Both the position numbers and the translations under genes were made by a program. A stretch of DNA of 64,000 bases from Candidatus Moraniibacteriota bacterium (lineage in GTDB: Bacteria; Patescibacteriota; Minisyncoccia; Moranbacterales; GWC2-37-73): the NCBI GenBank assembly GCA_003507445.1, contig DNVR01000008.1:29083-93082 (forward strand). The letters run 5' to 3'. A model generated the notes under the pieces. That model saw only the letters and a list, made by a program, of their open reading frames with translations. It ran no database searches and had not been told where the DNA came from. Positions 457 to 39,200 of the stretch are shown here, one piece after another (the first letter of the stretch is position 1; each line of letters starts with the position of its first letter).

Positions 457-1206
457 ATGAGTAAACCCTTGTGGTTTAAAGGAAAAACAGTGCAAAATTG
501 GAAAAGTGATGTTGCACGAATAAAAATTGTCATCAAAAGAAGCAATATTCTTTTTTTTGCTATTGCGCTTGCAGTTTTCGCTGTGTTGACAAGTTTATGG
601 GAAAACCAAACAGTGTCATATGCTAAGAAATATGCTACCAATAATGCAAATATTCAGGTCAAATCTCCCTTGCTTGAAGAACGAGAAGAATTGTTTGGCG
701 AAACTGTCGTTAGTGACAGGCAAGCAATGATTCTTAAAAAAGAACTTTTGAAGCAAACACAAGAAGACGGGAATATAGATTCAGGTCAATTTGCTCAAAA
801 AATATATGAAATAGTCGGAGATGCGCCAATTCGTGAGATGGTGCCATTTATTGCTAAGCGAGATGAAAAAGTGGCAGCATTTTTGGTTGGAATTGCAAAA
901 AAAGAAAGCAGCTTCGGTTTGGCTTCGCCGTCTAAGGATGGGAAGACTTGTTATAATTATTGGGGATATAAGTCATCAGGCGAGCGTGGAACTGCAATGG
1001 GGTATGCTTGTTTCGGTAGCGCTGAAGAAGCCATTAAAGTTGTTGGCGATCGCATTGAAGTTCTGGTTAACAAACAAAGAAACACTCCAGCTCGAATGGT
1101 TGACACTTGGAAATGTGGCACAAGCTGTGCCGGCGACCCCGGAGCACCCAGCTGGACTTCAACCGTAGCATTATATTTTAACCAACTTGTGACTAAAGAA
1201 GGTTAG
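457..1206 (+). CDS. hypothetical membrane-anchored protein (N-terminal TM helix); tandem paralog of upstream partial ORF
   Basis: 249-aa ORF with hydrophobic segment ILFFAIALAVFAVL. C-terminal region homologous to ORF 2..241. Followed by an intrinsic terminator. Confidence 0.55.
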   Translation: MSKPLWFKGKTVQNWKSDVARIKIVIKRSNILFFAIALAVFAVLTSLWENQTVSYAKKYATNNANIQVKSPLLEEREELFGETVVSDRQAMILKKELLKQTQEDGNIDSGQFAQKIYEIVGDAPIREMVPFIAKRDEKVAAFLVGIAKKESSFGLASPSKDGKTCYNYWGYKSSGERGTAMGYACFGSAEEAIKVVGDRIEVLVNKQRNTPARMVDTWKCGTSCAGDPGAPSWTSTVALYFNQLVTKEG

Positions 1207-1226
1207 AAAATACTTTGAATATAAAA

Positions 1227-1257
1227 AACGCTCAACTCTTGTTGAGCGTTTTTTTTG
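1227..1257 (+). terminator. rho-independent terminator (hairpin AACGCTCAAC-TCTT-GTTGAGCGTT plus T-run)
   Basis: Perfect 10-bp stem followed by TTTTTTTT, directly after the stop of 457..1206. Confidence 0.7.
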
Positions 1258-1389
1258 TTTAATCATTGGAGATTCATAAGAAATATGCTATATTTTATTC
1301 ATAAATCAGTAATGGTTGTATTATACTAAAAGTTCGCATAACCTGCAACTTTCAGCACACTATCAAACATTAAGTTCGCATATAAACGA

Positions 1390-1591
1390 GTTCATCTGAA
1401 ATGTCGCTCCGCTACGCTCGCTCCATTTCAGATGAACGCGCGCGCCTGCCGTCGCTGTCATCTGCTGTGTTGCTTCTCCCTACGGTCGTGAGCAAACACA
1501 TCAGATAACAGCGCCTATCCGAAATTTCCCTCGCCCCGACTGCTGTCGGGACTCGTGAAACATCGGATCAGGCGCGCGCGTTCTGCGAAAT
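1390..1591. repeat. GC-rich structured repeat element, copy A (full core ~202 bp)
   Basis: Near-identical to 2791..2992. Contains nested stems: GTTCATCTGAAATG...CATTTCAGATGAAC, CGCGCGCGCCTG...CAGGCGCGCGCG and CCCGAC-TGCT-GTCGGG. GC ~58% in an AT-rich background. Confidence 0.8.
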
Positions 1592-1640
1592 AGCGAAAAA
1601 CATACCTTTATTAATAATTTTTTCAAGCCCTTTTGAAATA

Positions 1641-1676
1641 AAAAAATCCCCCGGTCAATCACCAGGGGACGGCAGT
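1641..1676 (-). terminator. rho-independent terminator for the minus-strand small ORF
   Basis: Hairpin CCCCTGGTGATTGACCGGGG followed by a T-run on the minus strand, immediately after the TGA stop at 1677..1679. Confidence 0.55.
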
Positions 1677-1843
1677 CATCTTTTCAGATTTTTCATCACT
1701 GCGTAGAATGAAGCTGCTGCTCCGCCAACCATTACAAGTGCGAGTAATCCGATTGCAATGGGCTCGTAAATCTTCGGGTAGGATATCGTGGAAACCGTAA
1801 AGAGTGCCGTCCCTACGCCAAAAACAAAAGCATCCCATTTCAT
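1677..1843 (-). CDS. small hydrophobic membrane protein (55 aa), not in supplied ORF track
   Basis: ATG preceded by AAGGAGG with 6-nt spacing. Translation MKWDAFVFGVGTALFTVSTISYPKIYEPIAIGLLALVMVGGAAASFYAVMKNLKR. Terminator downstream. Local GC ~50%. Confidence 0.45.
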
Positions 1844-2077
1844 AAAGAACCTCCTTGAGAGTTGATATTACAACACTTCAATGACTTCCTATCCTACACA
1901 CGAAGTATTGAAATGTCAAGTGGCAATATTTCAAAAGGGCTTGAAAAAATTGGGCTCAAAATAAGGAGTGTATGTTTTTCCGCTACATCGCAGAACAAGC
2001 AATATCTGGCTCAAAAGTCTTGCCTAATATATAATTAAATAAAGGAGTGCAAGATTTTTTCGACCCAAATTTGCCCT

Positions 2078-2192
2078 TCGCTACGCTCGATCAAACTTCA
2101 GATATTGCTAGACGTTCATCTGAAATTTTCCTCGCCCCGACTGCTGTCGGGACTCGTGAAACATCGGATCAGGCGCGCGCGTTAGATGAAAT
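2078..2192. repeat. GC-rich structured repeat element, copy B (internal-deletion derivative)
   Basis: Has the 5' arm (TTCGCTACGCTCGATCAAACTTCAGATATTGCTAGAC), GTTCATCTGAAAT, then jumps to the 3' part TTCCTCGCCCCGACTGCTGTCGGGACTCGTGAAACATCGGATCAGGCGCGCGCGTT. Confidence 0.7.
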
Positions 2193-2255
2193 ACCCAGAA
2201 ATTTCTTTTTTTATTTTAATATTTTTTTGCAATTCATAATTCTTAATACAAACCC

Positions 2256-2630
2256 ATGTTTAATCCAAATCGTCCACCATCAGAACAATTAGAAAATAAA
2301 ATGTTCACTATCGAGCTTAAGGATAATGAGTCCATTGTCGTTAAGGAAATGGAACCAGGTGTATTTAAAATAGTAGATAATAGTATAACAAAAAAAGATG
2401 AGCATCAGATGGCGGGCGAAACATTCATAGGCTTCGGAGAGTGGGATGATGAGGTTGAAGATTTAGATAGTCGTAGTAGCGATGCACGATATTTTGATAT
2501 GTCGGAACATCTCAGATGGGAAGATGTTGAGTTTATTGGTGATGATGAAATAAAGGCGCCATCACTAGATCGGCTGAAGCAAGCGTTGCAACACATAAAA
2601 ATACTTCCTTATAATCCCGAAGATATGTAA
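2256..2630 (+). CDS. hypothetical acidic protein
   Basis: 124-aa ORF between repeat copies. No recognisable motif. Confidence 0.3.
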   Translation: MFNPNRPPSEQLENKMFTIELKDNESIVVKEMEPGVFKIVDNSITKKDEHQMAGETFIGFGEWDDEVEDLDSRSSDARYFDMSEHLRWEDVEFIGDDEIKAPSLDRLKQALQHIKILPYNPEDM

Positions 2631-2748
2631 TTGCAAAATACATTAAGGAAAAAGAAATTTCTGGGTACATCACATAACAAGGCACATGCGGTTCAAAAAT
2701 TTTGCATCTTTTAAAATTAGAGGTGTGCAAAATTTTCTCTCCCAAATT

Positions 2749-2992
2749 TTTTTCGGCTATGCCTTCAGAAAAACTTCAGATATGCCTAACGTTCATCTGA
2801 AATGTCGCTCCGCTACGCTCGCTCCATTTCAGATGAACGCGCGCGCCTGCCGTCGCTGTCATCTGCTGTGTTGCTTCTCCCTACGGTCGTGAGCAAACAC
2901 ATCAGATAACAGCGCCTATCCGAAATTTCCCTCGCCCCGACTGCTGTCGGGACTCGTGAAACATCGGATCAGGCGCGCGCGTTGTGCGAAAT
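2749..2992. repeat. GC-rich structured repeat element, copy C (full, includes 5' arm)
   Basis: 2791..2992 nearly identical to 1390..1591. The 5' arm CCCAAATTTTTTTCGGCTATGCC...CTTCAGATATGCCTAAC is shared with copies B and D. Confidence 0.8.
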
Positions 2993-3443
2993 GCATGTTT
3001 TCCTTTTGGGCTAACGCCCTGGCTCAAAAAAGAATCCGATTTTGTTTTTTCTTTATTTTAAAGAGGGGTTAAAAAGGTGTTTTTCTGCTCTTTGGGGAGC
3101 AGAAAAATTATACAAAAATTATACATATTGATTTTATTTATAAGCCATGTTAACTTATTATTATCAGTTAAGAATTTGTTTGTAGATTATGTTCTTTGTA
3201 TCAATTGATGTTATCCCACAGAAAGGAGGAAACTGCTTATGCGGAAGCTTATTGTGCTGTGCGCAGTTGTAGCTCTGGCTTAGAGACCATACCGATTTGG
3301 CCGGCGTCGTCGCCCGGCCGCCAGAGAAACATTCGCCCCCGATTCAAGAAACGGAAGAACCGTCATGGTGTAACCGTGGATTCTTGAATTGGCATAACCG
3401 ATAAACCGCCAACAAATGGATATACCCCCAAGGAGGTAATACC

Positions 3444-3542
3444 ATGACGACCAGCCGTGGACGACCTGTTTTCGCTCAGATGATCAAGGGAGAAGAAGCT
3501 GCCGGCAAGGTGAAGAAAGCCGAAGGTACAGCACTGGTCTAG
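3444..3542 (+). CDS. micro-ORF (32 aa) with consensus SD inside a GC-rich island
   Basis: AAGGAGG-7nt-ATG. Encodes MTTSRGRPVFAQMIKGEEAAGKVKKAEGTALV. Strong terminator 80 nt downstream. GC ~55%. Confidence 0.25.
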   Translation: MTTSRGRPVFAQMIKGEEAAGKVKKAEGTALV

Positions 3543-3622
3543 GACCGTGAAGTGGCCGGCCTCGTCCTTCCGGCCAAAATGGGGAAAGATAATCGTCAAC
3601 CGGACATCATGTCCATAACCTG

Positions 3623-3658
3623 ACCGCTCTCGGCATTGCTGAGAGCGGGTCTTTTTTT
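3623..3658 (+). terminator. rho-independent terminator
   Basis: ACCGCTCTC-GGCATTGCT-GAGAGCGGGT followed by TTTTTTT. Confidence 0.7.
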
Positions 3659-3863
3659 ATTTGCCACCCCAATAAATACCACGTATAATTACCAATAAGG
3701 AGTATTGGCTCCAGGCCATTCACCCTTAGCCCCTCTTCCCAAAACAAAGACGAAATTCAATTAATTCATTACAGAAATGCTATTCCTCTGCTGAGGAATG
3801 AAAAGAAAAAACAAACATCGCACAACAACGAGTATCCGGTTTCGACTTTTTCGAAAGTCTTCA

Positions 3864-3948
3864 CCCAAATTTTTCTTTCGCTATGCTTGGTCAAACTTCA
3901 GATACTGCTAGACGTTCATCTGAAATGTCGCTCCGCTACGCGCGTTCG
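3864..3948. repeat. GC-rich structured repeat element, copy D (large internal deletion)
   Basis: 5' arm, GTTCATCTGAAATGTCGCTCCGCTACG, then CGCGTT. Shares its 5' arm with copies B and C. Confidence 0.6.
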
Positions 3949-4052
3949 GAAAAAAACTAAAAATTTCCTCTCTATTTTGAAAAGAATTTTTTGGCAATTT
4001 TGTTCGGTCGAACTAATTTTAAACAATTCAAAAAATTAATTTTAAAAACAAA

Positions 4053-4898
4053 ATGATGAGAAATAAAAAAGAAAATATTACCATAATTATAATTATCGTA
4101 ATTTTAACCTTATCCGCAGGAGTTATCGGCTGGATGCTAGCGAAGAACTCGCAAGATGTTTCAAAATCTAAGATAGTTAATAATTCAAAACTAATAAGCA
4201 CAACAGAACAGTCTTCGGAGCCGACAAATAAAATTTCTGAATCGTTACCTCCTGTTGATGAAATCGCTATTAACGATTTTTCCATAGCTATTGTCGCAAA
4301 CAATGATCTGCACTGGTCTAGTCGCGCAAATGTCAAATCAGATACTTCAATTCAATTTCGCTGGACAACAACAGGTGCGGATAGTTGCAATATAAGTGGC
4401 GGAAATTTATTTAATTCGAATACAAATTTAGCAACAAACGAAACAGGAATTAAAAAAGTTGCAGATGATTTTTCGAACGGAATCTACACATTAAAATGTG
4501 TAAGAAAATTAGATAATAAAACAGCAGAGGCAACTCCTATAATACTCAATGTCACACCAGCTAAAAAGTTAGTCATGTGCATGAAAAAATGCGGAAATGG
4601 CGGAATACCCATTCAGCAGAATATGAATCGCTTCTCTGGTGAAACAGTCCAAAAAGTCCGAGCGTGTTTTGGAAATTTTGCGTTGGATTGTCCAACACAG
4701 GATGTTACCAAAAATGCCGAATGGCTAACTAGTAATAATTCGATAATTACTTGGTCAAAGGATTATACGGTCGATGGAGAGAAGATAGTGGATGATGTGT
4801 ATCCCAATAAAACCCTGAAATCAGTCGGTGCAGGCAATGCTGAAGCCAGTGTTACATATTCTGGTTATTCATATGTTGTGAGGGTTGATGTGAAGTAG
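4053..4898 (+). CDS. hypothetical secreted/membrane-anchored Cys-containing protein
   Basis: 281-aa ORF with N-terminal signal-anchor ITIIIIIVILTLSAGVIGWML. No recognised catalytic motif. Confidence 0.5.
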   Translation: MMRNKKENITIIIIIVILTLSAGVIGWMLAKNSQDVSKSKIVNNSKLISTTEQSSEPTNKISESLPPVDEIAINDFSIAIVANNDLHWSSRANVKSDTSIQFRWTTTGADSCNISGGNLFNSNTNLATNETGIKKVADDFSNGIYTLKCVRKLDNKTAEATPIILNVTPAKKLVMCMKKCGNGGIPIQQNMNRFSGETVQKVRACFGNFALDCPTQDVTKNAEWLTSNNSIITWSKDYTVDGEKIVDDVYPNKTLKSVGAGNAEASVTYSGYSYVVRVDVK

Positions 4899-5083
4899 AC
4901 ATATTAAAAATAATTACTAAAAACTCTTTATTTTTAGGAAAGAAAAACTTTAGTTTCATTGCTTGAACCCGGCATATGTGGCTCGAAAAATTGACACTAT
5001 TAAAAAGTTCCAAATCAAGCATCATATTTGACGAAAATGAGTTAATTGGATATAATTGGATGTAGTTAATATATCCAAAAACT

Positions 5084-6172
5084 ATGGCTAATATAAAGCA
5101 AAAAGATATTAATATTGCAGACAAATTTTCAAAAAGGCTTGATAATATACCTGCGGAAATAATTTCAAAAATCGCCAAGATTGATGAATTAAAAGGCAGC
5201 TGGGTTTCTGGCACTCAACTAAGCTCGCAAGCACTGGGTCGTCTCAAGCGGTCTGTTTTGATAACCTCGACTGGAGCATCAACTCGTATTGAGGGTGTGC
5301 AACTTTCTGATGAGGATATTGAAAAAGTGATGCGCGGTATAAATATTCAAAAATTTGCTGACCGCGATAAGCAAGAAGTCAAGGGTTATTACGAACTTTT
5401 GGAAAATGTCTTTAATTCTTGGGGGAGTTTGAAATTCAACGAAAGTTCAATAAAACATTTCCACAAGGAGTTATTGAAATATTCAGAAAAAGACCAGGGT
5501 CATTTGGGTGATTACAAATTTGGAGAAAATAAAGTCGTCGCATACGATCATGAAGGAAAAGAGGTTGGGATAATTTTCAATCCCACTTCGCCATACCTCA
5601 CGCCCAAAGAAATGATTGAGCTTATTGAATCAACCAATTTTTTGCTTGCTGAAAAAAAATACCATCCGTTGCTAGTAATTGCAAATTTCCTGGTTGAATT
5701 TTTGGCAATTCATCCTTTTAAAGATGGAAATGGAAGAGTTTCTAGAGTTTTGACGAATTTATTGTTGCTTCAAAATGGATATCTGTATATGCCGTATGTT
5801 TCACATGAAAAACTAGTGGAAGACAATAAAACAGATTATTATCTTGCACTTAGGAGAAGTCAAAAGACTTTTCATTCAAAAAACGAAGACATTTCTCCAT
5901 GGTTAGAATTTTTCTTTACAATTTTATTACGACAATCACAATTTGCGATTGAATTATTGTCAAAAGAGAATATTGAAAAATTACTATCAGAAAGACAACT
6001 TGCAGTTTGGAAATTTTTTCAACAAGTTGAAATTACTGGAACAGGCGAGATTGTTGCTGGAACAAATATTCCGCGGCCAACCGTCAAGCAATCACTTGAG
6101 GTATTGTTGAAGTTGAAAAAAATAGAGAGAATAGGCCAAGGTAGAAGTGTGAGATATAAAAAGGTTGCTTAA
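5084..6172 (+). CDS. fic: Fic/DOC family protein (putative AMPylator) with N-terminal inhibitory helix and C-terminal winged-helix-like region
   Basis: Canonical Fic motif HPFKDGNGRVSRVL (HxFx(D/E)GNGRxxR). Upstream STRIEG matches the (S/T)xxxE(G/N) inhibitory motif of class II Fic proteins. Confidence 0.85.
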   Translation: MANIKQKDINIADKFSKRLDNIPAEIISKIAKIDELKGSWVSGTQLSSQALGRLKRSVLITSTGASTRIEGVQLSDEDIEKVMRGINIQKFADRDKQEVKGYYELLENVFNSWGSLKFNESSIKHFHKELLKYSEKDQGHLGDYKFGENKVVAYDHEGKEVGIIFNPTSPYLTPKEMIELIESTNFLLAEKKYHPLLVIANFLVEFLAIHPFKDGNGRVSRVLTNLLLLQNGYLYMPYVSHEKLVEDNKTDYYLALRRSQKTFHSKNEDISPWLEFFFTILLRQSQFAIELLSKENIEKLLSERQLAVWKFFQQVEITGTGEIVAGTNIPRPTVKQSLEVLLKLKKIERIGQGRSVRYKKVA

Positions 6173-6416
6173 GATTGAATAATAGAAAGAAAATTAAGAA
6201 GTTAGGTTCGCCAAAATACGTAAAAGTTTATATTTCTAAAAAGCGGAATCAAGGGATTTCGCTTTTTGTTATGGATTTTTTGGTGTATAATGAATGTATA
6301 AAATGATCAATGAGCAGTTTTCAATTTTCATATAAATTAATAATTTTCAATTTGAAAATTAAAAATATTGAAAATTAAATGAAAATTGTGAATTGTAAAT
6401 TGAAAATTGTTAATCT

Positions 6417-14040: not shown

Positions 14041-14452
14041 TGTATATATGGTGGAGTTGATGGGAATTGCACCCATGTCCAAAATTGACAATCCAAAATC
14101 CTCTACAAGTTTAGTTTATTTTTTCTCACCGAAGCGAGTGCGACTAATTAGAGTAGAGAATAAACAAAACCTCTAAATGCCGTTTTCAGAATTATTTCGC
14201 ATTTTGTGTCCAAAAAACCACAAAACACTATTCTCATGTTTGACACCGAGGTCTGCTTACGAGAAATCAGCAGTTCGATGGCTTCGAGCCTAAGCTAAAG
14301 CAGGTGAAAAACCAGCAAATGCTTGCGCAAATGTAGCTTTCGCCTTTGATATGAAGTTTGCACTTATATCTTCGCCACACTTTTTACGATACAGCAGCGG
14401 TGATCGACTTGCATATTTTGAAAAGTACAACCTGTCGAAACTAAACAACCCC
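14041..14452 (-). ncRNA. ssrA: tmRNA (ssrA)
   Basis: Minus-strand 5' GGGGTTGTTTAGTTTCGACAGG matches the tmRNA 5' consensus. 3' end reads ...GGACATGGGTGCAATTCCCATCAACTCCACCA with encoded CCA. Acceptor pairs 7/7 including the G3-U wobble. Adjacent to smpB. Confidence 0.75.
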
Positions 14453-30241: not shown

Positions 30242-33200
30242 ATGGGTGTAATCGGAATAAGGAAAAATATAAAAAGCAAAAATTGGGGACTGAAAATTAT
30301 TTCAGCGTTTTTTGCTTTGAGTTTCTTTTTTGTGGCTGTCGCTTCAGCTGAAGTCGCTCCAACAATCTCTGAAATTTCTCCAAATAATGGGTTGCCAGAG
30401 GGTGGAACAAGTGTGACGATAACTGGAACAAATTTTTCTCAAAGTACAATAGATGCAAACACGAAATTGTTGATTCAAGGTAACGGCACAGGTGCAAGCT
30501 TCGTTGATTCTGAAATAACCCCAAAGACAGTTACCGCTGTTGGAAATGTCACCCAATCTTCTGCGCAGTCAAAATTTGGAGGATCAAGTGTTTATCTTGA
30601 TGGAAATGGCGATTATTTGTCTTTAGCGGACAGCGAGGATTGGGCTTTTGGCACAGGAGATTTCACAATGGATATGTGGGTTAAAACAACCGAATCTGAT
30701 GGTTTCTTGCTTTCTCAGATGCCTTCAAATGGTGCAGCGGGAGTTGCTAGTTTTTATTCAGTTGTGAGTGTGGATGGAAAAGTTATTTTTGTTCCTGATT
30801 ATGTTTCCTACCCAAGTCATCACACTATAACATCAACAGTTTCTGTTAATGATGATGCTTGGCATCACATCGCATTTGTTAGGAACGGCGCATATATAAG
30901 AATGTATATTGATGGAACAGAAAGTGGCACAGCTTTAAATATGGGCGCTGGTTTTACTATGACAAATTCTGCTGAACTTTTGAAAATAGGTAGCATTGGG
31001 CTTCCAGAAAATTACAGTCCTTATGGTGGGTATATTGATGAAATCCGTGTTTCCAAGGGGATTGCTCGCTGGACCAGCAATTTTACACCTCCATCTTCTG
31101 AAAATCATTTGCAATCAACATTAACAATCGGTGGAACTTCTGCCACAAATATTGCAGTTACAAGCCCAACTACAATTACCGCCACAACTCCTGCTCACGC
31201 TGCGGGTGCAGCTGATGTAGTGGTTACAAATTACGACGGTCAATCTGCAACACTGACAAGCGGATATACTTTCAATGCTGCTCCAACCATTTCTGCAGGA
31301 GCTGTTACTCCAGCGAGTGCAAAACTTACGGGTGGCGACACAATTACAATTACAGGATCTGGTTTTTATGGAACTCCAAGTGTAACTCTTGGTGGAACAG
31401 CTGCGACTGCTGTTACAGTAGTAAATCCAACCACAATCACCGCGACAACCCCAGCACATTCTGTTGGTGCTGTTGATGTTGTGATTACAAATGAAGATTC
31501 GCAAAGCGCGACACTTGCAAACGGATTTACATTCACGGAACTTCCACCGACAGTTTCAGGAATTTCTCCAAGTGCTGGTTCACCTGCTGGCGGAACAAGT
31601 GTGACGATAAGTGGAACTAATTTTTTGGTTGGAGATGTTGATACATACACTAAAGTGTTGCTGCATGGTGATGGCACGGGAGCAAGCTTTGTTGATTCTG
31701 AATTAATCCCAAAAGTAGTTACAGCAGTTGGCAATGCTACTCAATCTGCTGCGCAATCTAAATTTGGAGGGAAAAGTATGTATTTTGATGGGAGTGGTGA
31801 TTATCTTGATTTGGCAACCTCTGCTGATTTTGGTCTCGGCACAGGTGATTTTACTGTGGATTGTTGGGTAAATTTCTCCACTGTAACTAATGCAATATTT
31901 GTGAATACCACTAGTTCAGCAAATGGATTCTTTTTTCAATACTATAATAATGCTTTTACTTTTGGTCAAAATAATGTAGGTTTTGTAATTAATACACCTT
32001 GGACGCCTTCTATAAACACTTGGTATCACATAGCAGTGACAAGGGCGAGTGGCACAACCAAAGGCTTTATTAATGGAACGCAAATAGCATCTGTTAGTGA
32101 TAATTATAATTACGCTAACAATATATTGCGCGTAGGTGAAAGCGTTAATGGTTATCTAGATGAAGTCCGTGTTTCAAAAGGGATTGCTCGTTGGACTAGT
32201 AATTTTACACCGCCGTCTGCTGAATATCACTCACAACCAATGTTAACTTTTGGCGGAATCTATGCTACAAATGTCGCAGTCACAAACCCAACTACAATTA
32301 CCGCTACAACTCCTGCTCACACTGCAGGTGCAACTGATGTTGTCGTCACAAATTACGATGGACAAAGTGCAACACTAACAAGTGGTTACACTTTCAATCC
32401 TGCGCCAACAATTTCTGCTGGAGCAGTTTCTCCAGCCAGTGCCTTGAAGACAGGAGGCGACACAATTACAATCACGGGAACAGGATTTTATGGCACACCT
32501 ACCGTAACTTTGGGAGGAACAGCTGCGACTGCTGTTACAGTAGTAAATCCAACCACAATCACCGCGACAACCCCAGCACATTCTGTTGGTGCTGTTGATG
32601 TTGTGATTACAAATGAAGATTCGCAAAGCGCGACACTTGCAAACGGATTTACATTTACAGAACTTCCATCAACAGTTGGATCAATTTCTCCAAATAATGG
32701 AACTGTTGCAGGTGGAACCAATGTGACGATTACGGGGACGAATTTTATTGAAAACAGCGCAACAGGTGGAACGATTACAACCTCTGGAGAATATACAGTG
32801 CATACATTTACAGGAAGTGGAACGTTTGTGCCGAATAATGAGATGGATGTTGAGGTTTTGGTTGTTGCTGGCGGAGGTGGAGGTGGAGGTGGAGAACCTA
32901 GTGCTGGCGATTCTGGTGGTGGTGGAGGAGCTGGAGGATACAGAACTGCAAATCTTACAATATCATCAGAATCTCATAATGTGACTGTGGGTGCTGGAGG
33001 CGCAGGTGCAGCAGGAACATCTTTACCAGGAAATAAAGGGAATGATTCAATTTTTGATTCCATAACTGCAGCAGGTGGAGGTGCTGGTGGAATAGAGGGC
33101 GGAAGTGGTGGAGCTGGAGGATCTGGAGGTGGAGCTGGAGGTCTCTGTTCAGTTCCAGTTTCAGGAGGAGCAGGTAATACGCCAGCAACGACACCAAGTC

Positions 33201-36200
33201 AAGGAAATAATGGAGGATTTACACCCGGGACAACTTGTTCTGGGCGAGCTGGTTCTGGCGGTGGTGGTGCTGGCGGTGTTGGAGGTGCAGGAACCACTGT
33301 TAGTGGCGCTGGTGGTGCGGGCGTAGCAAGTGATATTACCGGAACTTCTATAACAAGAGCTGTTGGTGGTGCTGGCGGACAAAGCGGCAGTGGAACAGGT
33401 ACAGCAGGAGCTGCAAACACTGGAAATGGTGGAAAAGGAGGAGGAATAAGTTCTGCTGGTGGTGCAGGAGGAAGCGGTGTTGTTATTGTTAGATATTTGA
33501 CCCATAAACCAGTAGTTACCATCGGTGGAACTTCTGCTACAAATGTCGCAGTCACAAGCCCAACCACCATCACTGCCACAACTCCCGCACATACCGCAGG
33601 CACAGCTGATGTGGTGGTTACGAATTATGACGGACAATCTGCAACGCTGACAAATGGATACACTTTCAATCCTGCGCCAACAATTTCTGCAGGAGCAGTT
33701 TCTCCAGCCAGTGCAAAACTTACTGGAGGCGATACAATCACAATCACTGGAACGGGATTTTATGGCACACCTACCGTAACTCTTGGAGGCACAGCTGCGA
33801 CTGCTGTTACAGTAGTAAATCCAACAACAATCACTGCGACAACTCCCGCACATTCTGTTGGCGCTGTTGATGTTGTTATTACAAATGAAGATTCTCAATC
33901 CGCAACTCTTACCAATGGATTCACTTTCACAGAACTTCCACCAACACTAAGTTCAATTTCTCCTGATAACGGTCCAGTAGCAGGGGGAACTAATGTGACG
34001 ATAAGTGGTACGAATTTTGTCGCTGGGTCTGTAAGTGCAATTGGCGGAACAATAACAACTGATGGTGATTATACGGTACACACATTTACAGGTAGTGGAA
34101 CATTTACAGCTGATAGTGATATGCCTGTGGAGGTTCTGGTTGTTGCTGGTGGTGGAGGTGGCGCAGGAATGGCTGAATCTGGTGGAGGTGGAGGAGGTGG
34201 AGTGCAACATCATACTTCATGGCCAATAAATGCTGGTGCAAATTATAGTGTTGTAGTTGGAAATGGTGGTTTAGGTGCTACAAGTGTTTCAAATGGTGCA
34301 AATGGTGCAAATTCATCTTTTGGCGAATTGATTGCTAATGGAGGTGGTGGAGGAGGTGGATTTATCGGTTTAACTCCAGGATCTGGAGGTTCAGGCGGTG
34401 GATCTACGCGAGGAGTTGCTGCAGGATTGAGTAATCAAATTTCAATTAATGGTTCAAATTCTTACGGAAATCCTGGAGGTGTTGGATGGCCAAGTGGATA
34501 TACGGCTGGAGGTGGTGGAGGTGCTGGTTCTGCGGGAGGAAATGCTACTAGTGGAGTGTATCCAGATGGAGGTGTTGGAGGTGCTGGAAGAGCATTTGAT
34601 ATTTCAGGAACATCAACATATTATGCTGGAGGTGGTGGAGGAATTTATGCTTATGGTGGTATTGGTGGTGGAGGCAATGGTAATATGGGAACAGTTGAAT
34701 CTTATAATGGTGTGGCTAATACTGGAGGTGGAGGAGGTGGAGGAGCTAATGTAGTTGGAGGAGATGGTGGTTCTGGAATTGTAATAGTGAGATATTTGAC
34801 AAAGGCTAAATTGCCAACCGTAATAATCGATGGAATTGCAGCTACAAATGTTTCACTTGTGAACCCAACCACAATAACAGCAACCACTCCTGCTCACACT
34901 GCAGGTGCAACTGATGTTGTCGTCACAAATTACGATGGACAAAGTGCAACACTAACAAGTGCGTTTGAATATCACAATTGGATTACGGCAGGAACGTATA
35001 CCTCAACAGTTAAACCTCTGGCTAATGTTGGATTTGGAAACATTGATTGGGTTGCTGGCACGCCTGCTAATACTAATTTGACAATGCGAGTAAAATCTTG
35101 CACCTCTGCTGATTGCAGCGACAAACCAAGTTGGTCTGGATGCGACTTGGCTGCGCTGGACAATGGTACCGATATTTCCGGTAAGGGTTGTGTGGTGGAT
35201 GGCCAAGGTTATGTTCAATATCAAGCATATCTTTCAACTGATTCAAATTCTGCTCAGCCATATCTCGACAGCGTCACAATTTCAACTCAACCAGAATATT
35301 CCAAAACATTTTTAAGTCTCATTTCTTCTCCTTTTGATACGGGAAATGAAAGCAACAGTGTTCAAAAAATTTCTTGGACTGCAACAAATGACAACTTGGC
35401 AACTCAGGGACAAGTGGCAATACAAATTCGAACTGCACCGGATAATGGCGGAATTCCTGATTTTACAAATTCAGTTTGGTGTGGGCCGACTGATTGCAGC
35501 GGCACAACAAATTCAACAACAGCTTTTGCAATCAGTTATTACACTGACAAAACAGGGGCTCTTGCGATAAATGCAATTAACAAGGATCTTAGTGATGATC
35601 GTTGGATTCAATATGCAACATTCTTGAAATCAGCTGATGGAACTTTGACTCCGACATTGACTGATGTGACGATGCAATATGCATATAACACTCCACCAGC
35701 AATTACAATTGACAGCAACCCAATATTTTTAAAGCAAAATGCAGATGGAACTTTCTCTGTTCCATACACCTTAAGTGAAACTTATGATGATTTTGGTAAC
35801 ATTCCTCACGGAACAGCTGGTTCTCCGATTAAAGCACTTCTTTTTTATCAACCGAAAAATGACATCACAATTGAAGAACTTACAAATGTTCGAACAGGAA
35901 TTGTCACCCTCAATAATCCAAGCAATCTTCCAATTCCATCGCAAGGTTCAATGCTGATTGGCGATGAGTTGATGACTTTTGATTCAGTTGGAGCAACTGG
36001 AAATCAAAGAAACATCACAGCGCGTGGAATTGCTTTTGCAACTTCATATCCAACCACGGCTGCTGCACACTTGGCAAATTCCGCAGTATTTTTTGCAACT
36101 TCAGCTTCGATTCAAACAATCGATACGCTTGTTGAGACGGGCATAGTTGGCGCTGAGGCATCCGTATCAAATATGTTCTCTTGGAATCCAAGAACTGATG

Positions 36201-39200
36201 TCAATACAAATTTGAATGGTAACAAACTTTCAGACGTGGTTTTCAAAGTTGCTGCCAACGACGCTGATTCAACCAACATTAATAATATCGGACAAAGCAG
36301 TGCGACCACTTCGCAAGTTCTGGATTTGGAATCTCCTTTGATTAAAAATGTCACTTCATCTTCGGCTGATGGGAAATATAACGCTGGAAAAAATGTGGAC
36401 GTCACGATTAATTTTGCTGACAGTCTTGGCAACGCAAAGAATGTGACTTCAACAGGCGCTGTCACGATAGTTTTGGAAACTGGCGTTAATGATTATGAAT
36501 GCTTGATCCCATCTATCACAAACGCATCAAGCGCATCTTGCACATATCAAGTCCAAACAGGCGATGTTAGCGAAGATCTAACTGCAATTTCTGTAAGCGG
36601 AACAATTAAAGATCAATTCCAAAACACTCTTTCAAACTTTGCGATTCCAGCAGGACAAAACATTGCTGATTCAAAAGCTATTGTTATCGATACAATTTCT
36701 CCAATCATTTCAGGTGTGTCGCCAGCAGCAAGTGCGTTTGTAAATTCAATCACTAGCGCTAATGGTGGCTCTGATATTTCGTATGAAGCGACAGAACTTT
36801 TAAAAACAGGATCATATGTTAAATTCACTTCAACTTCGGGAACAGATTTGAACACCGAATATCTTTGCACTTTGCAGGGAACAGCACTTGAGGTTGGCGT
36901 GCACAGTGGTTTTGAAATCAAACAAGATGCAAACAACTGCACTGAAGTTCAAAGCGCGCTTCAAAGTGGTTCTGTTTATACAATGACAATTCACGCCATT
37001 GACGAAGCTGACAATGCCAGTGACCAAACAATTGCAAATATTAATTTTGACACAACCAATCCGACAGCTAGCGTAACTTCCCCATCAAACGATGCCTTTT
37101 TCAACAGCATTACAACTGGCTCAGATGTTTCATATAATCTTGATGAACAGTTGCAAGCAGGCAGTTATCTTAAATTCACTAGAACTGCTGGTAGCGCTGA
37201 TGGATCTTCTCCGCGAACTTGTAATTTGACAGGGACTGAGCTTGAAGAAGGTGATCATAATAATGTGGACTTGAACGCTGTCTGTGGAGGATTTGCTTTA
37301 GTAGATGGTGCAGTTTATTCAATTGATCTTTTCGCTAAGGACTTGGCTGGAAATGAGGCAAATGCAACACAAAAAACAAATGTTACTTTTGACCAAACTG
37401 CTCCAACACTCAACTCATTTACTTCAGACAAGGCCAACAACACGCCAGCTACAGCTTATGGCGCAGGGGAAGTGATTGATATTAAGGCGGTTTACAGCGA
37501 ATCATTGGCAGTTGGCTCAACAATGACAGTTAGATTGGAAAACACAGCAACGCCCGCTGTTGATGTTGTGCTCGATCAAATTGCTGGAAATGTGCTTTCG
37601 GGAACATTTGTTGTGGACGGTCCGCGTAAGGGATATGACACGGCTGATTTGACTTTGCGATCAATTGTTTCTCAAAATGCTATCGATCAAGCTGGCAATG
37701 TTAAAACTGATTCGGCGATACCGTTTGGACAAAACTTAGGAGACAACAAAGACATTGCGATTGATACAGGAACTCCAATTCTGGAAAGTTTTGCTGCTCA
37801 AAAACTTCCTGAGAATTCAACAAGCGGTTCTTACAAAGCAGGAACGGAAATAAAAATAACCGCGACATATTCCAAACCAATTGCCTCTGGCGAAATCACG
37901 CTGCATCTTAATACTCAAAATGGAGCTGAAGACATTGAAAACATTGTATTGTCAACAATTTCAGGTTCTACAATTTTCGGCACACACACTGTGCAAAATC
38001 TGGACAACGCTGAAGACTTGAAAGTTTTTGCCATCACTGCTCAAAGCGTTACTGACTTTAAAGGTAATGTGCTTGATAGAACAGGAACAATGACTGAATA
38101 TGACGCATATTTCACTTCGCTTGTTGGCGAAAACATTTCTGCTGTTACAAATATTTCCAATTTCAAAATTGACACAACTGCGCCAACACTTGGAGCAACG
38201 CCAATTGCCATTGCAAATGTCGCAGGAAAAACTAGCAGTGCAACCCCAGTGATAACATTGTCTGCAACTGATAATGATATTTCTAAAGCAATCTTCTCAT
38301 TGGATGGGGGAACTTCTTGGTGTGCTCCAATTGATTATGGTGCAACAATAAACACATTTGACATTACATCTAGTGCTTGCGGTGGTTCTGCTTCCAACGA
38401 AGTAAAAACTGTCACAGTCAAGTTCAGCGATGTTGCTGGCAATGAGAGTGCAACTTCCAGCGCTTCAGTTGAATATGATAATTTGAAACCACAGTTGCAA
38501 ACAATTACTGCTGATGTGGTCGGCGGAATCTATGGACCAAATTCAGTTATTAAAATCACTGCAACATATGACGAAGACATTGCCAGTGGAACATTAGTTG
38601 TCAATCTTAACAATGGAAAGCAGCTTACGATTAATACTGTCGAAACGGCCAGAACACTGGTGGCAAATTATACTGTTGGCGCAACTATTAGTGGCGAAGA
38701 CACAAGCGCGCTTCGTGTAGCTGCAATTGTTTCGCAAGCTGTTTCTGATTCAGCTGCCAACACGCAAGACGGAACCAGTCTGGCTGGAATAACTGCCAAC
38801 ATCGACACTGATAAAACAATTATAATTGATACTACTGCGCCAAGCGCTGCTGCGCCAGACGGCTCGATTGTTGCTGACAGGGCAAGCGAAGAAAACAAAA
38901 TAAAAATTACAATTTCTCCTGATGATTGGGGTGTGGCAAAGGATGAAATGACCGCTCAAATTGCGCTGATGGACACGGTGGTTGCTTGCAACTTTACTGG
39001 CGCAAATGCAGCAGTCTTCAACAGTGAATTTCCAAAAACATTTACATATGATGACCTTGCAGGCGCAGTGAAAAAAGTTTGTGTTAAATTGACTGACAAG
39101 GCGGGGAACATTTCTTCTGATTTCAGTGTGGTCACTCCAAACACTCCTGAAAATTTCGTGTATACTGATCTTACCAGCGCGACGTTTACAGGTGCGATTT

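Follow-up and report, generated by a model that had tools for sequence, protein, structure and literature searches.

A GC-rich block as the probable cargo of a cassette-like module in a Candidatus Moraniibacteriota genome

We analysed a GC-rich block at positions 3196-3660 of a 64,000-nt (64-kb) stretch of contig DNVR01000008.1 (hereafter the window) from a Candidatus Moraniibacteriota bacterium, a member of the Parcubacteria within the Candidate Phyla Radiation (CPR). The block is probably recently imported DNA that forms the cargo of a cassette-like module and amounts to a self-contained gene for a small RNA or a micro-peptide. It is contiguous with its flanks, exhibits foreign composition and foreign translation signals, lies within an architecture of repeats and inverted repeats, and is absent from the closest relative; a neighbouring module, c1, is inverted in another contig. 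We propose that the block is the cargo of module c3 in a short array of three recombining cassettes bounded by inverted repeats, located in a 5-kb accessory stretch of these Rifle-groundwater Parcubacteria. The import would have been recent, and the donor would have had a higher GC content and Shine-Dalgarno (SD)-dependent translation; arrival and reshuffling may have proceeded by recombination at the GTT.../...AAC module ends. In the proposed layout, an AT-rich promoter region would precede a GC-rich RNA of ~445 nt carrying a 14-codon open reading frame (ORF), two stable hairpins, a 32-codon ORF and a terminator, most likely a small accessory RNA or micro-peptide gene rather than a regulator of a host gene. 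Transcription of the block, translation of its micro-ORFs, its mode of mobility and any function are inferred from these features.

Contiguity, composition and signals of the block

In at least 10 independent assemblies from Rifle groundwater metagenomes, the block and both of its junctions matched the window at 100% identity, with the identical stretch running from 2843-2954 through the block into the downstream genes. These assemblies, obtained from different samples with different assemblers, were retrieved by exact-sequence look-up of the neighbouring proteins and of the 32-aa ORF, and comprised ENA 'ANAN16' IDBA scaffolds of 105-131 kb, megahit k141/k127 contigs, three JGI assemblies and Logan contigs. 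Many contigs stop within repeats (2843-2954, 3078 and 3980; the Logan contigs of two samples begin at 3078), which is what multi-copy repeats or population variants produce. Because the block and its junctions are identical in all those contigs, contamination or misassembly, one of the origins offered in an earlier reading of the sequence alone (the sequence-only reading), is excluded as far as assemblies can show.

The maximal-scoring GC segment placed the GC-rich core at 3215-3651, with 54.0% GC and a GC skew of +0.03, in a window of 38.0% GC. The sequence-only reading had put the block at ~55% GC; this value holds for the core and is slightly high for the full interval 3196-3660 (51.6%). 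The flanks of the core contain 28% GC (2990-3214) and 37% GC (3652-3826), and just 0.85% of the 465-nt windows in the 64 kb are equally GC-rich (z = 3.2). GC skew was ~0 in the block and the array around it, whereas the chromosome on either side exhibited +0.17 to +0.24. The near-zero skew argues against long residence, and the locus is not a replication terminus.

Both SD-led micro-ORFs described earlier are present (Table 1): ORF1, with 14 codons, is hydrophobic, and ORF2, with 32 codons, is hydrophilic and was annotated by gene callers in 6 contigs. Counting both strands of the 64 kb (128 kb of strand), AGGAGG followed at 4-10 nt by ATG is present at four sites, two in the GC-rich block, one in module c1 and one within a gene, so that three of the four sites lie within the array. 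The occurrence of SD sites in the block far exceeds what chance would give. An SD-like motif (GGAG, GAGG or AGGA, at -20 to -3 of the start) preceded only 1 of the 44 host-type genes in the window; the leaders of these 44 starts were A/T-rich and practically without SD motifs, and the host appears to start translation without SD pairing. Because the host is practically without SD sites, the SD signals of the block are foreign to their surroundings, in line with the earlier remark that composition and SD use were atypical. All six reading frames of the block are repeatedly interrupted. If TGA is recoded, four of the six frames contain ORFs of 116-141 codons, as expected from the scarcity of TAA and TAG in GC-rich DNA.

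The strong terminator previously placed at 3623..3658 was confirmed, with an 11-bp stem (3624-3648) followed by a run of seven T (3652-3658). Upstream, either of two promoter-like sites (3177-3205 or 3137-3164) would place the RNA start immediately before the GC-rich core, and the core thus spans the predicted transcript body, from after the AT-rich promoter-like region to the terminator. Given these two limits of the GC-rich stretch, a compact transcription unit of ~445 nt on the plus strand (3213-3658) is the best description of the block, with transcription predicted from these signals. The minus-strand promoter-like site within the block is weak (3615-3586, 9/12). The strong promoter-like site that follows the terminator (3661-3689) could serve as a cassette-borne outward promoter.

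The predicted RNA contains several stable hairpins (Table 1), and its fold z-score was -2.6 on a single sequence, with an equal value on the opposite strand. As an alternative pairing, 3361-3375 could pair with the SD2/AUG2 region 3435-3449 (15 nt, 87% complementary); SD2 exhibited a mean paired probability of 0.57 in the predicted ensemble and is therefore not strongly sequestered, and a competing local hairpin prevails.

Table 1 Features of the block, the array and the accessory stretch (window positions)
Feature	Position	Strand	Description
SD1 AGGAGG and ORF1	3224..3283	+	SD1 3224-3229, 9-nt spacer, ATG 3239, MRKLIVLCAVVALA, TAG 3281-3283
SD2 AAGGAGG and ORF2	3430..3542	+	SD2 3430-3436, 7-nt spacer, ATG 3444, MTTSRGRPVFAQMIKGEEAAGKVKKAEGTALV, TAG 3540-3542
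Putative promoter-like site, weak	3177..3205	+	TTGTTT-17-TATCAA, read by eye
Alternative promoter-like site	3137-3164	+	TTTATA-16-TATTAT, 9/12, promoter scan
Intrinsic terminator	3624..3658	+	Stem 3624-3648, 11 pairs, 8 G-C, 3-nt loop; seven T 3652-3658
Strong promoter-like site after terminator	3661..3689	+	TTGCCA-17-TATAAT, 11/12; toward repeat unit D and the 281-aa gene
Predicted stem over last ORF1 codons	3268..3331	+	3273-3279 : 3320-3326; encloses GGCCGG/CCGGCC hairpin 3299-3319; single-sequence prediction
12-bp stem with two small capping hairpins	3339..3392	+	CCGATTCAAGAA / TTCTTGAATTGG
Second TGGCCGGCnTCGTC...CCGGCC hairpin	3553..3578	+	Direct repeat of 3298-3325, spacing 255 nt
Perfect 11-bp hairpin	3080..3107		TTTTTCTGCTC/GAGCAGAAAAA; minus-strand terminator-like; insulates block on left
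Module c3 (GC-rich block as cargo)	2981..3826		Starts GTTGTGCG, ends CGCACAAC, 8/8 complementary
Module c1	1580..1996		61/70-nt terminal inverted repeats 1580-1640 / 1927-1996
Module c2	2181..2678		~60-nt terminal inverted repeats 2181-2244 / 2620-2678
Repeat unit A	1380..1582		Tandem imperfect hairpins H1-H3, 56% GC, ends GCGCGCG/TT
Linker and repeat unit B	1997..2182		H1-left/H3 hybrid, ends GCGCGCG/TT
Linker and repeat unit C	2679..2982		H1-H3, ends GCGCGCG/TT; frequent assembly breakpoint
Linker and repeat unit D	3827..3944		Truncated H1, ends GCGCG/TT
Strain-specific stretch	1206..6260		Array, 281-aa ORF (4053-4898), SoFic-type Fic gene (5084-6172)

The block was searched at the protein level, against Rfam, by nucleotide comparison with plasmids and phages, and by exact-word scanning of collections from which this organism is missing. 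No Rfam family reached its threshold in the block, in a scan of the whole window at the gathering threshold or in scans of 1100-4200 and 3190-3670 at E <= 10. The sole match was GA-cis (RF02987), with 18.4 bits against a gathering threshold of 34.7 (E = 0.25 on 481 nt) and several non-canonical pairs, and a literature search on the GA-cis motif returned nothing relevant. Scans for tRNA and transfer-messenger RNA (tmRNA) found none in the block. A phmmer search of the 32-aa ORF against 1.84 billion representative proteins returned itself and one spurious repeat protein, with no homologue, and a 54-aa ORF obtained by merging ORF1 across a frameshift had no candidate homologue among 5.8 billion proteins. 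Pfam, PHROGs, NCBIfam and PADLOC gave no match for any frame, for a 78-aa antisense ORF or for a 140-aa TGA read-through ORF. Neither tblastn of the 32-aa ORF nor blastn of 3000-3870 matched plasmids or phages, exact 21-22-mers of the block were absent from the IMG/VR scan, and neither the window nor 73 fetched loci contained a paralogue of the block. The block is an orphan in these searches and is probably non-coding.

Several functional candidates were also considered. A Csr/Rsm-type sponge was rejected, as GGA motifs numbered 12 against 8.9 expected (P = 0.14) and did not lie in predicted loops. A guide RNA of the array is not obvious, since the block has no words in common with the repeat units or module ends. 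In type I toxin-antitoxin systems, an antisense RNA overlaps the gene of a hydrophobic toxin peptide of ~19-60 aa. ORF1 is hydrophobic, with just 14 aa, ORF2 is hydrophilic, the minus-strand promoter-like site is weak, and PADLOC gave no match; the c1 ORF (55 aa, two predicted transmembrane segments) fits a type I toxin better than ORF1 or ORF2.

Cassette array and accessory stretch

The block lies in a gene-poor stretch (1207-4052) that holds a 2.8-kb array, with repeat units and modules at about 1380-3944. This array, the decisive context of the block, had gone unnoticed in the sequence-only reading. Four related GC-rich palindromic repeat units (A-D), each consisting of one to three imperfect hairpins, separate three modules (c1-c3) of 417-846 bp. 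Units A, B and C end in GCGCGCG/TT and unit D in GCGCG/TT, where the slash marks the module boundary. Unit A at 1390-1591 and unit C at 2791-2992 are 99.5% identical over 202 nt, and unit C folded as single-stranded DNA gave z = -7.8. Further copies of the array repeats were found neither elsewhere in the 64-kb window nor in the 21-kb locus of the relative described below; the H1 palindrome had no match in IMG/VR, and an H3 repeat word gave 0 matches in the genome and metagenome contig collections, which evidently do not hold this organism.

Every module starts with GTTNNNN and ends with NNNNAAC, in which the NNNN are complementary: c1 (GTTCTGC/GCAGAAC) matches at 7/7 positions, c2 (GTTAGAT/ACATAAC) at 5/7 and c3 at 8/8. 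The longer inverted repeats scored 69 against a shuffle maximum of 27 for c1 and 50 against 32 for c2; c3 has further inverted-repeat arms at 2981-3006/3801-3826 (73%) and 3037-3054/3802-3820. The module starts share just their first 12 nt, GTTNNNNGAWWT, and beyond these the terminal repeats are module-specific. The block has no words of 9 nt or longer in common with repeat units or module ends except a T-run; one lone shared 10-mer, AATAAGGAGT, is found at 3694, close to the block but outside it. Immediately 5' of the first GTT of the array, AAGTTCGCATA occurs twice in direct orientation (1330-1342 and 1372-1384, 42 nt apart); the two copies recall the direct-repeat integrase-binding sites of attI, and a similar AGTTCGCAA occurs upstream of a cassette in metagenome contig L015.

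The cargo of c1 resembles the block in layout. On the minus strand it carries a promoter-like site, AGGAGG, a 55-aa ORF with two transmembrane segments (1676-1843) and a terminator (1670-1646); a protein search found no homologue of the 55-aa ORF. The cargo of c2 is a 124-aa ORF (2256-2630, +) without SD. Relatives of the c2 protein, P0002 (59% aa identity) and P0003 (50%), occur in unrelated genomic contexts, with family loci at L015 3255-3635 and L017 5334-5735, both on metagenome contigs. In L015 a 24-nt inverted repeat brackets the gene of the 59% homologue, and sequence similar to the repeat units is found where those contigs terminate. The c2 proteins form a small orphan family with the conserved motifs FKIVDNS-T, WDEEVEDLD and APSLD-LK-AL-H; the AlphaFold model is poor (predicted local distance difference test score, pLDDT, 57), and a profile of the protein found no relatives in the metagenome contig collection.

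The array forms part of a strain-specific stretch, 1206-6260. The closest genome among 185,579 species representatives, Parcubacteria group bacterium GW2011_GWC1_36_108 (locus L026), has flanking genes 88-94% identical at the nucleotide level, and there 42 bp (L026 13727-13768) replace the entire stretch, and the upstream 249-aa gene leads almost straight into the promoter region of an EamA gene. Downstream of the array, the 281-aa ORF is membrane-anchored and the Fic protein matches the PADLOC model of the SoFic anti-phage defence system (7e-41). Because of this SoFic match, 1206-6260 looks like a small accessory or defence islet. In contig L006, 2843-6571 is 100% identical to the window and the sequence beyond is 98.7% identical to the relative; this contig is either a real recombinant, with the accessory stretch in the background of the other species, or a chimera produced by megahit over 310 nt of identical sequence.

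Rearrangement was observed in contig L066 (994 nt), from another Rifle sample, which carries c2 with one single-nucleotide polymorphism, then unit C, then c1 rather than c3. At about 880-994 of this contig, the c1 interior (1641-1926) is inverted between perfect 25-nt repeats (1616-1640 / 1927-1951). The inversion is not attributable to a misjoin, because the inverted repeat is much shorter than the k of the assembler. The c1 interior is an invertible segment, and no invertase gene was found near c1.

Comparison with known recombination systems

The array shares with integrons, and with clusters of attC sites lacking integron-integrases (CALIN), a tandem arrangement of short modules between related, structured, palindromic repeats resembling recombination sites. 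The units end in G/TT, and the first 7 nt of a module are complementary to its own far end, which corresponds to the relation between core site and inverse core site. As in integrons, the cargo consists of orphan ORFs or of no real ORF and differs from the host in composition, and the array varies between close relatives. Non-coding cassettes account for 6-49% of the integron arrays of Vibrio; as a rule their homologues are either close or lacking altogether (PMC1382264).

The array differs from integrons in several details. The inter-module units of the array measure 186, 304 and 118 nt and contain one to three hairpins, whereas attC sites measure 55-141 nt and form a single imperfect hairpin. 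An attC site is bounded by R'' (RYYYAAC) and R' (GTTRRRY). Among the R' candidates GTTCTGC, GTTAGAT, GTTGTGC and GTTCGGA, one of four (GTTAGAT) fits GTTRRRY, and none of the three R'' candidates (GCAGAAC, ACATAAC and GCACAAC) fits RYYYAAC strictly, as position 3 is A; all candidates have the invariant GTT or AAC triplet. A possible L''/L' pair (ATCCGG / CGGAT), read by eye, occurs in units B and C and not in D. The complementarity of the module ends extends 20-70 nt outward, a feature foreign to integron cassettes. Each of the c1 and c3 cargos comes with a promoter-like site and a terminator of its own, and the cargos face both ways, whereas integron cassettes are mostly promoterless, co-oriented single ORFs. 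Integrons have an adjacent intI tyrosine recombinase gene with attI and Pc, which CALIN lack; here no intI or Phage_integrase-type domain was found in 30 window ORFs or among the genes located within 6 kb upstream. In its boundary logic the array resembles integrons, and membership is unproven. In the literature searched, no title or abstract described an integron or cassette array in a CPR/Patescibacteria genome.

The array also resembles the Xer dif modules (Acinetobacter pdif) and integrative mobile elements exploiting Xer (IMEX), in which small modules with inverted recombination sites are shuffled without an adjacent dedicated recombinase. In dif modules, 28-bp sites (an 11-bp XerC arm, a 6-bp spacer and a conserved 11-bp XerD arm) lie inverted at both ends (PMC6449649). 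The H2/H3 junction of the array is likewise an 11-6-11 partial palindrome, ATTTCGGATAG-GCGCTG-TTATCTGATGT. However, the best array site matched the Escherichia coli, Bacillus subtilis and Acinetobacter arms at 16/22 positions, equal to the best background sites elsewhere in the window, a comparison in which the lineage's own dif may differ; the other junctions lack the 11-6-11 geometry, the module-end repeats are module-specific and far longer than 28 bp, and the array is not at a GC-skew switch. A chromosomal dif site or terminus was rejected as well, with no skew switch and dif-like scores no better than background.

As in invertons and shufflons, inverted repeats bracket the cargo, and the c1 interior occurs in both orientations with the crossover within the perfect 25-nt repeat. 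Unlike in those systems, no invertase lies nearby, inversion was seen for c1 only and not for c3 (whose repeats are imperfect), and the segments are whole small transcription units rather than promoters or gene fragments. Miniature inverted-repeat transposable elements (MITEs) and foldback elements are likewise short non-autonomous modules, with long terminal inverted repeats such as those of c1 and c2 (~60-70 nt). Here, in contrast, no target-site duplication was found at the module ends (GCGCGC versus AAG/AAC flanks), the terminal repeats differ between modules past 12 nt, and the modules form a single array next to the same repeat unit instead of being dispersed. The missing target duplication and the module-specific repeats rule out a derivative of a MITE or DDE transposon.

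Because the R boxes, the attC form, intI and promoterless co-oriented cargo fail or are unproven, we filed the locus as a cassette array, a variant outside the integron, dif-module, inverton and MITE families. It is possible, if doubtful, that it represents a new cassette platform in CPR, without adjacent integrase and with integron-like G/TT...AAC boundaries and long module-specific inverted repeats, that would capture, reorder and invert foreign transcription units; the block would then be a captured structured-RNA or micro-peptide gene functional in a non-SD host.

Weighing the origin of the block

Several observations weigh against imported cassette cargo as the origin of the block. Among the three modules, c3 has the weakest inverted repeats, which are interrupted and score 31 against a shuffle maximum of 27. 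No recombinase gene was found among the 30 window ORFs checked or in 6 kb upstream. The 5-kb difference may be a deletion in the relative rather than an insertion here, and the order c2-C-c1 in L066 could be a repeat-induced misjoin, because the common repeat spans 202 nt and the largest k of the assembler was 141. The negative searches on the block are weak, as the collections did not return the organism's own repeat; with no block homologue in these searches, neither a foreign source nor purifying selection on RNA or peptides is demonstrable. The fold z-scores are modest and do not differ between the strands, and a GC-rich stretch that matches its transcript exactly is also typical of a native structured RNA gene in an AT-rich genome.

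Such a native non-coding RNA, of an undescribed class and possibly cassette-borne, would owe its GC content to RNA structure, as do the tRNAs of this genome, and its AGGAGG motifs to structural or ligand-binding roles. The match between the GC-rich 3215-3651 and the predicted promoter-to-terminator interval, with flanks of 28-37% GC, speaks for it, as do the several stable predicted hairpins, including the duplicated GGCCGG...CCGGCC hairpin, and the lack of a protein homologue in any frame. We nevertheless consider it unlikely: no Rfam family reached threshold, the z-score of -2.6 is equalled by the opposite strand, neither Csr/Rsm-type GGA enrichment nor guide-like words common with the array were found, and the block is missing in a relative with 88-94% identical flanks and is hence no core RNA. 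The sequence-only reading had instead offered a horizontally acquired remnant. Acquisition is supported by the relative that lacks the stretch, by the cassette context and by the foreign GC content, skew and SD signals; decay is not, as no frame has a homologue. In its fullest form this account would make the block a decayed foreign two-gene operon, in which a stop or frameshift had truncated an SD-led gene for a lipoprotein or secreted protein, while another SD-led gene and the terminator of the operon followed. ORF1 resembles a signal peptide in its n- and h-regions and ends in ...VALA, removal of one base at its TAG yields the 54-aa ORF (MRKLIVLCAVVALA-RDHTDL...NWHNR, frame +1), and both SDs and the terminator are intact. 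However, the merged 54-aa ORF and the 32-aa ORF had no homologues among 5.8 billion and 1.84 billion proteins, respectively, and no frame has a family match, and six interrupted frames, which would imply long decay, are hard to reconcile with the 54% GC and perfect signals that would imply recent arrival. A decayed operon is thus improbable.

In leader attenuators, an ORF with regulatory codons ends tens of nucleotides from mutually exclusive antiterminator and terminator hairpins, directly 5' of the regulated gene. A leader-peptide cassette, also suggested earlier, could in principle control transcription or translation of the 281-aa gene (4053-4898) or of ORF2, given a short SD-led ORF 5' of hairpins and a terminator, an ORF1 3' end that overlaps the predicted stem 3273-3279 : 3320-3326, and the potential of 3361-3375 to pair with the SD2/AUG2 region. 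This proposal fared poorly, and we regard it as very improbable: the ORF1 stop lies 340 nt 5' of the terminator, runs of regulatory codons are missing from both peptides, Rfam gave no match to a leader or riboswitch, SD2 is not strongly sequestered in a host without SD-led initiation, and the next gene begins 395 nt past the terminator, behind the near-consensus promoter-like site 3661-3689 and unit D. An assembly chimera, or contamination from a higher-GC organism, has a negligible probability; the abrupt change in composition is the only point in its favour, and it is opposed by the identity of both junctions in the independent assemblies and by the location of the block inside a module with mutually complementary ends. 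Import as the cargo of a cassette-like module thus remains our preferred explanation.

Other features of the window lie apart from the array. A tmRNA gene at 14049-14452 (-), with an Rfam score of 130 bits and 40% GC, adjoins smpB and was not called by ARAGORN, a program designed to detect tmRNAs. GC content in the window peaks, at up to 53.8% over 465 nt, in a giant 3703-aa ORF (30242-41353), especially at 32688-34594. A C-terminal segment, TWKCG...C, is common to the ORFs at 14-241 and 457-1206 and to an upstream 344-aa gene (L018 4751-5785), which together make up a local paralogous family without Pfam match; a repeat lies within this segment (133-156 / 1107-1130).

CPR bacteria have tiny genomes, and to our knowledge little is known about their uptake of foreign DNA. 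The block gains interest from its context, a cassette array in the genome of a CPR bacterium. The pointers to a platform are an array that differs from that of a close relative, one module in two orientations, and cargo with the GC content and ribosome-binding signals of a different kind of organism. If the array is a working cassette platform, it would provide a concrete, sequence-defined case of gene capture and shuffling in CPR, and would raise the question of what role SD-led micro-ORFs play in a host whose genes lack SD sites.

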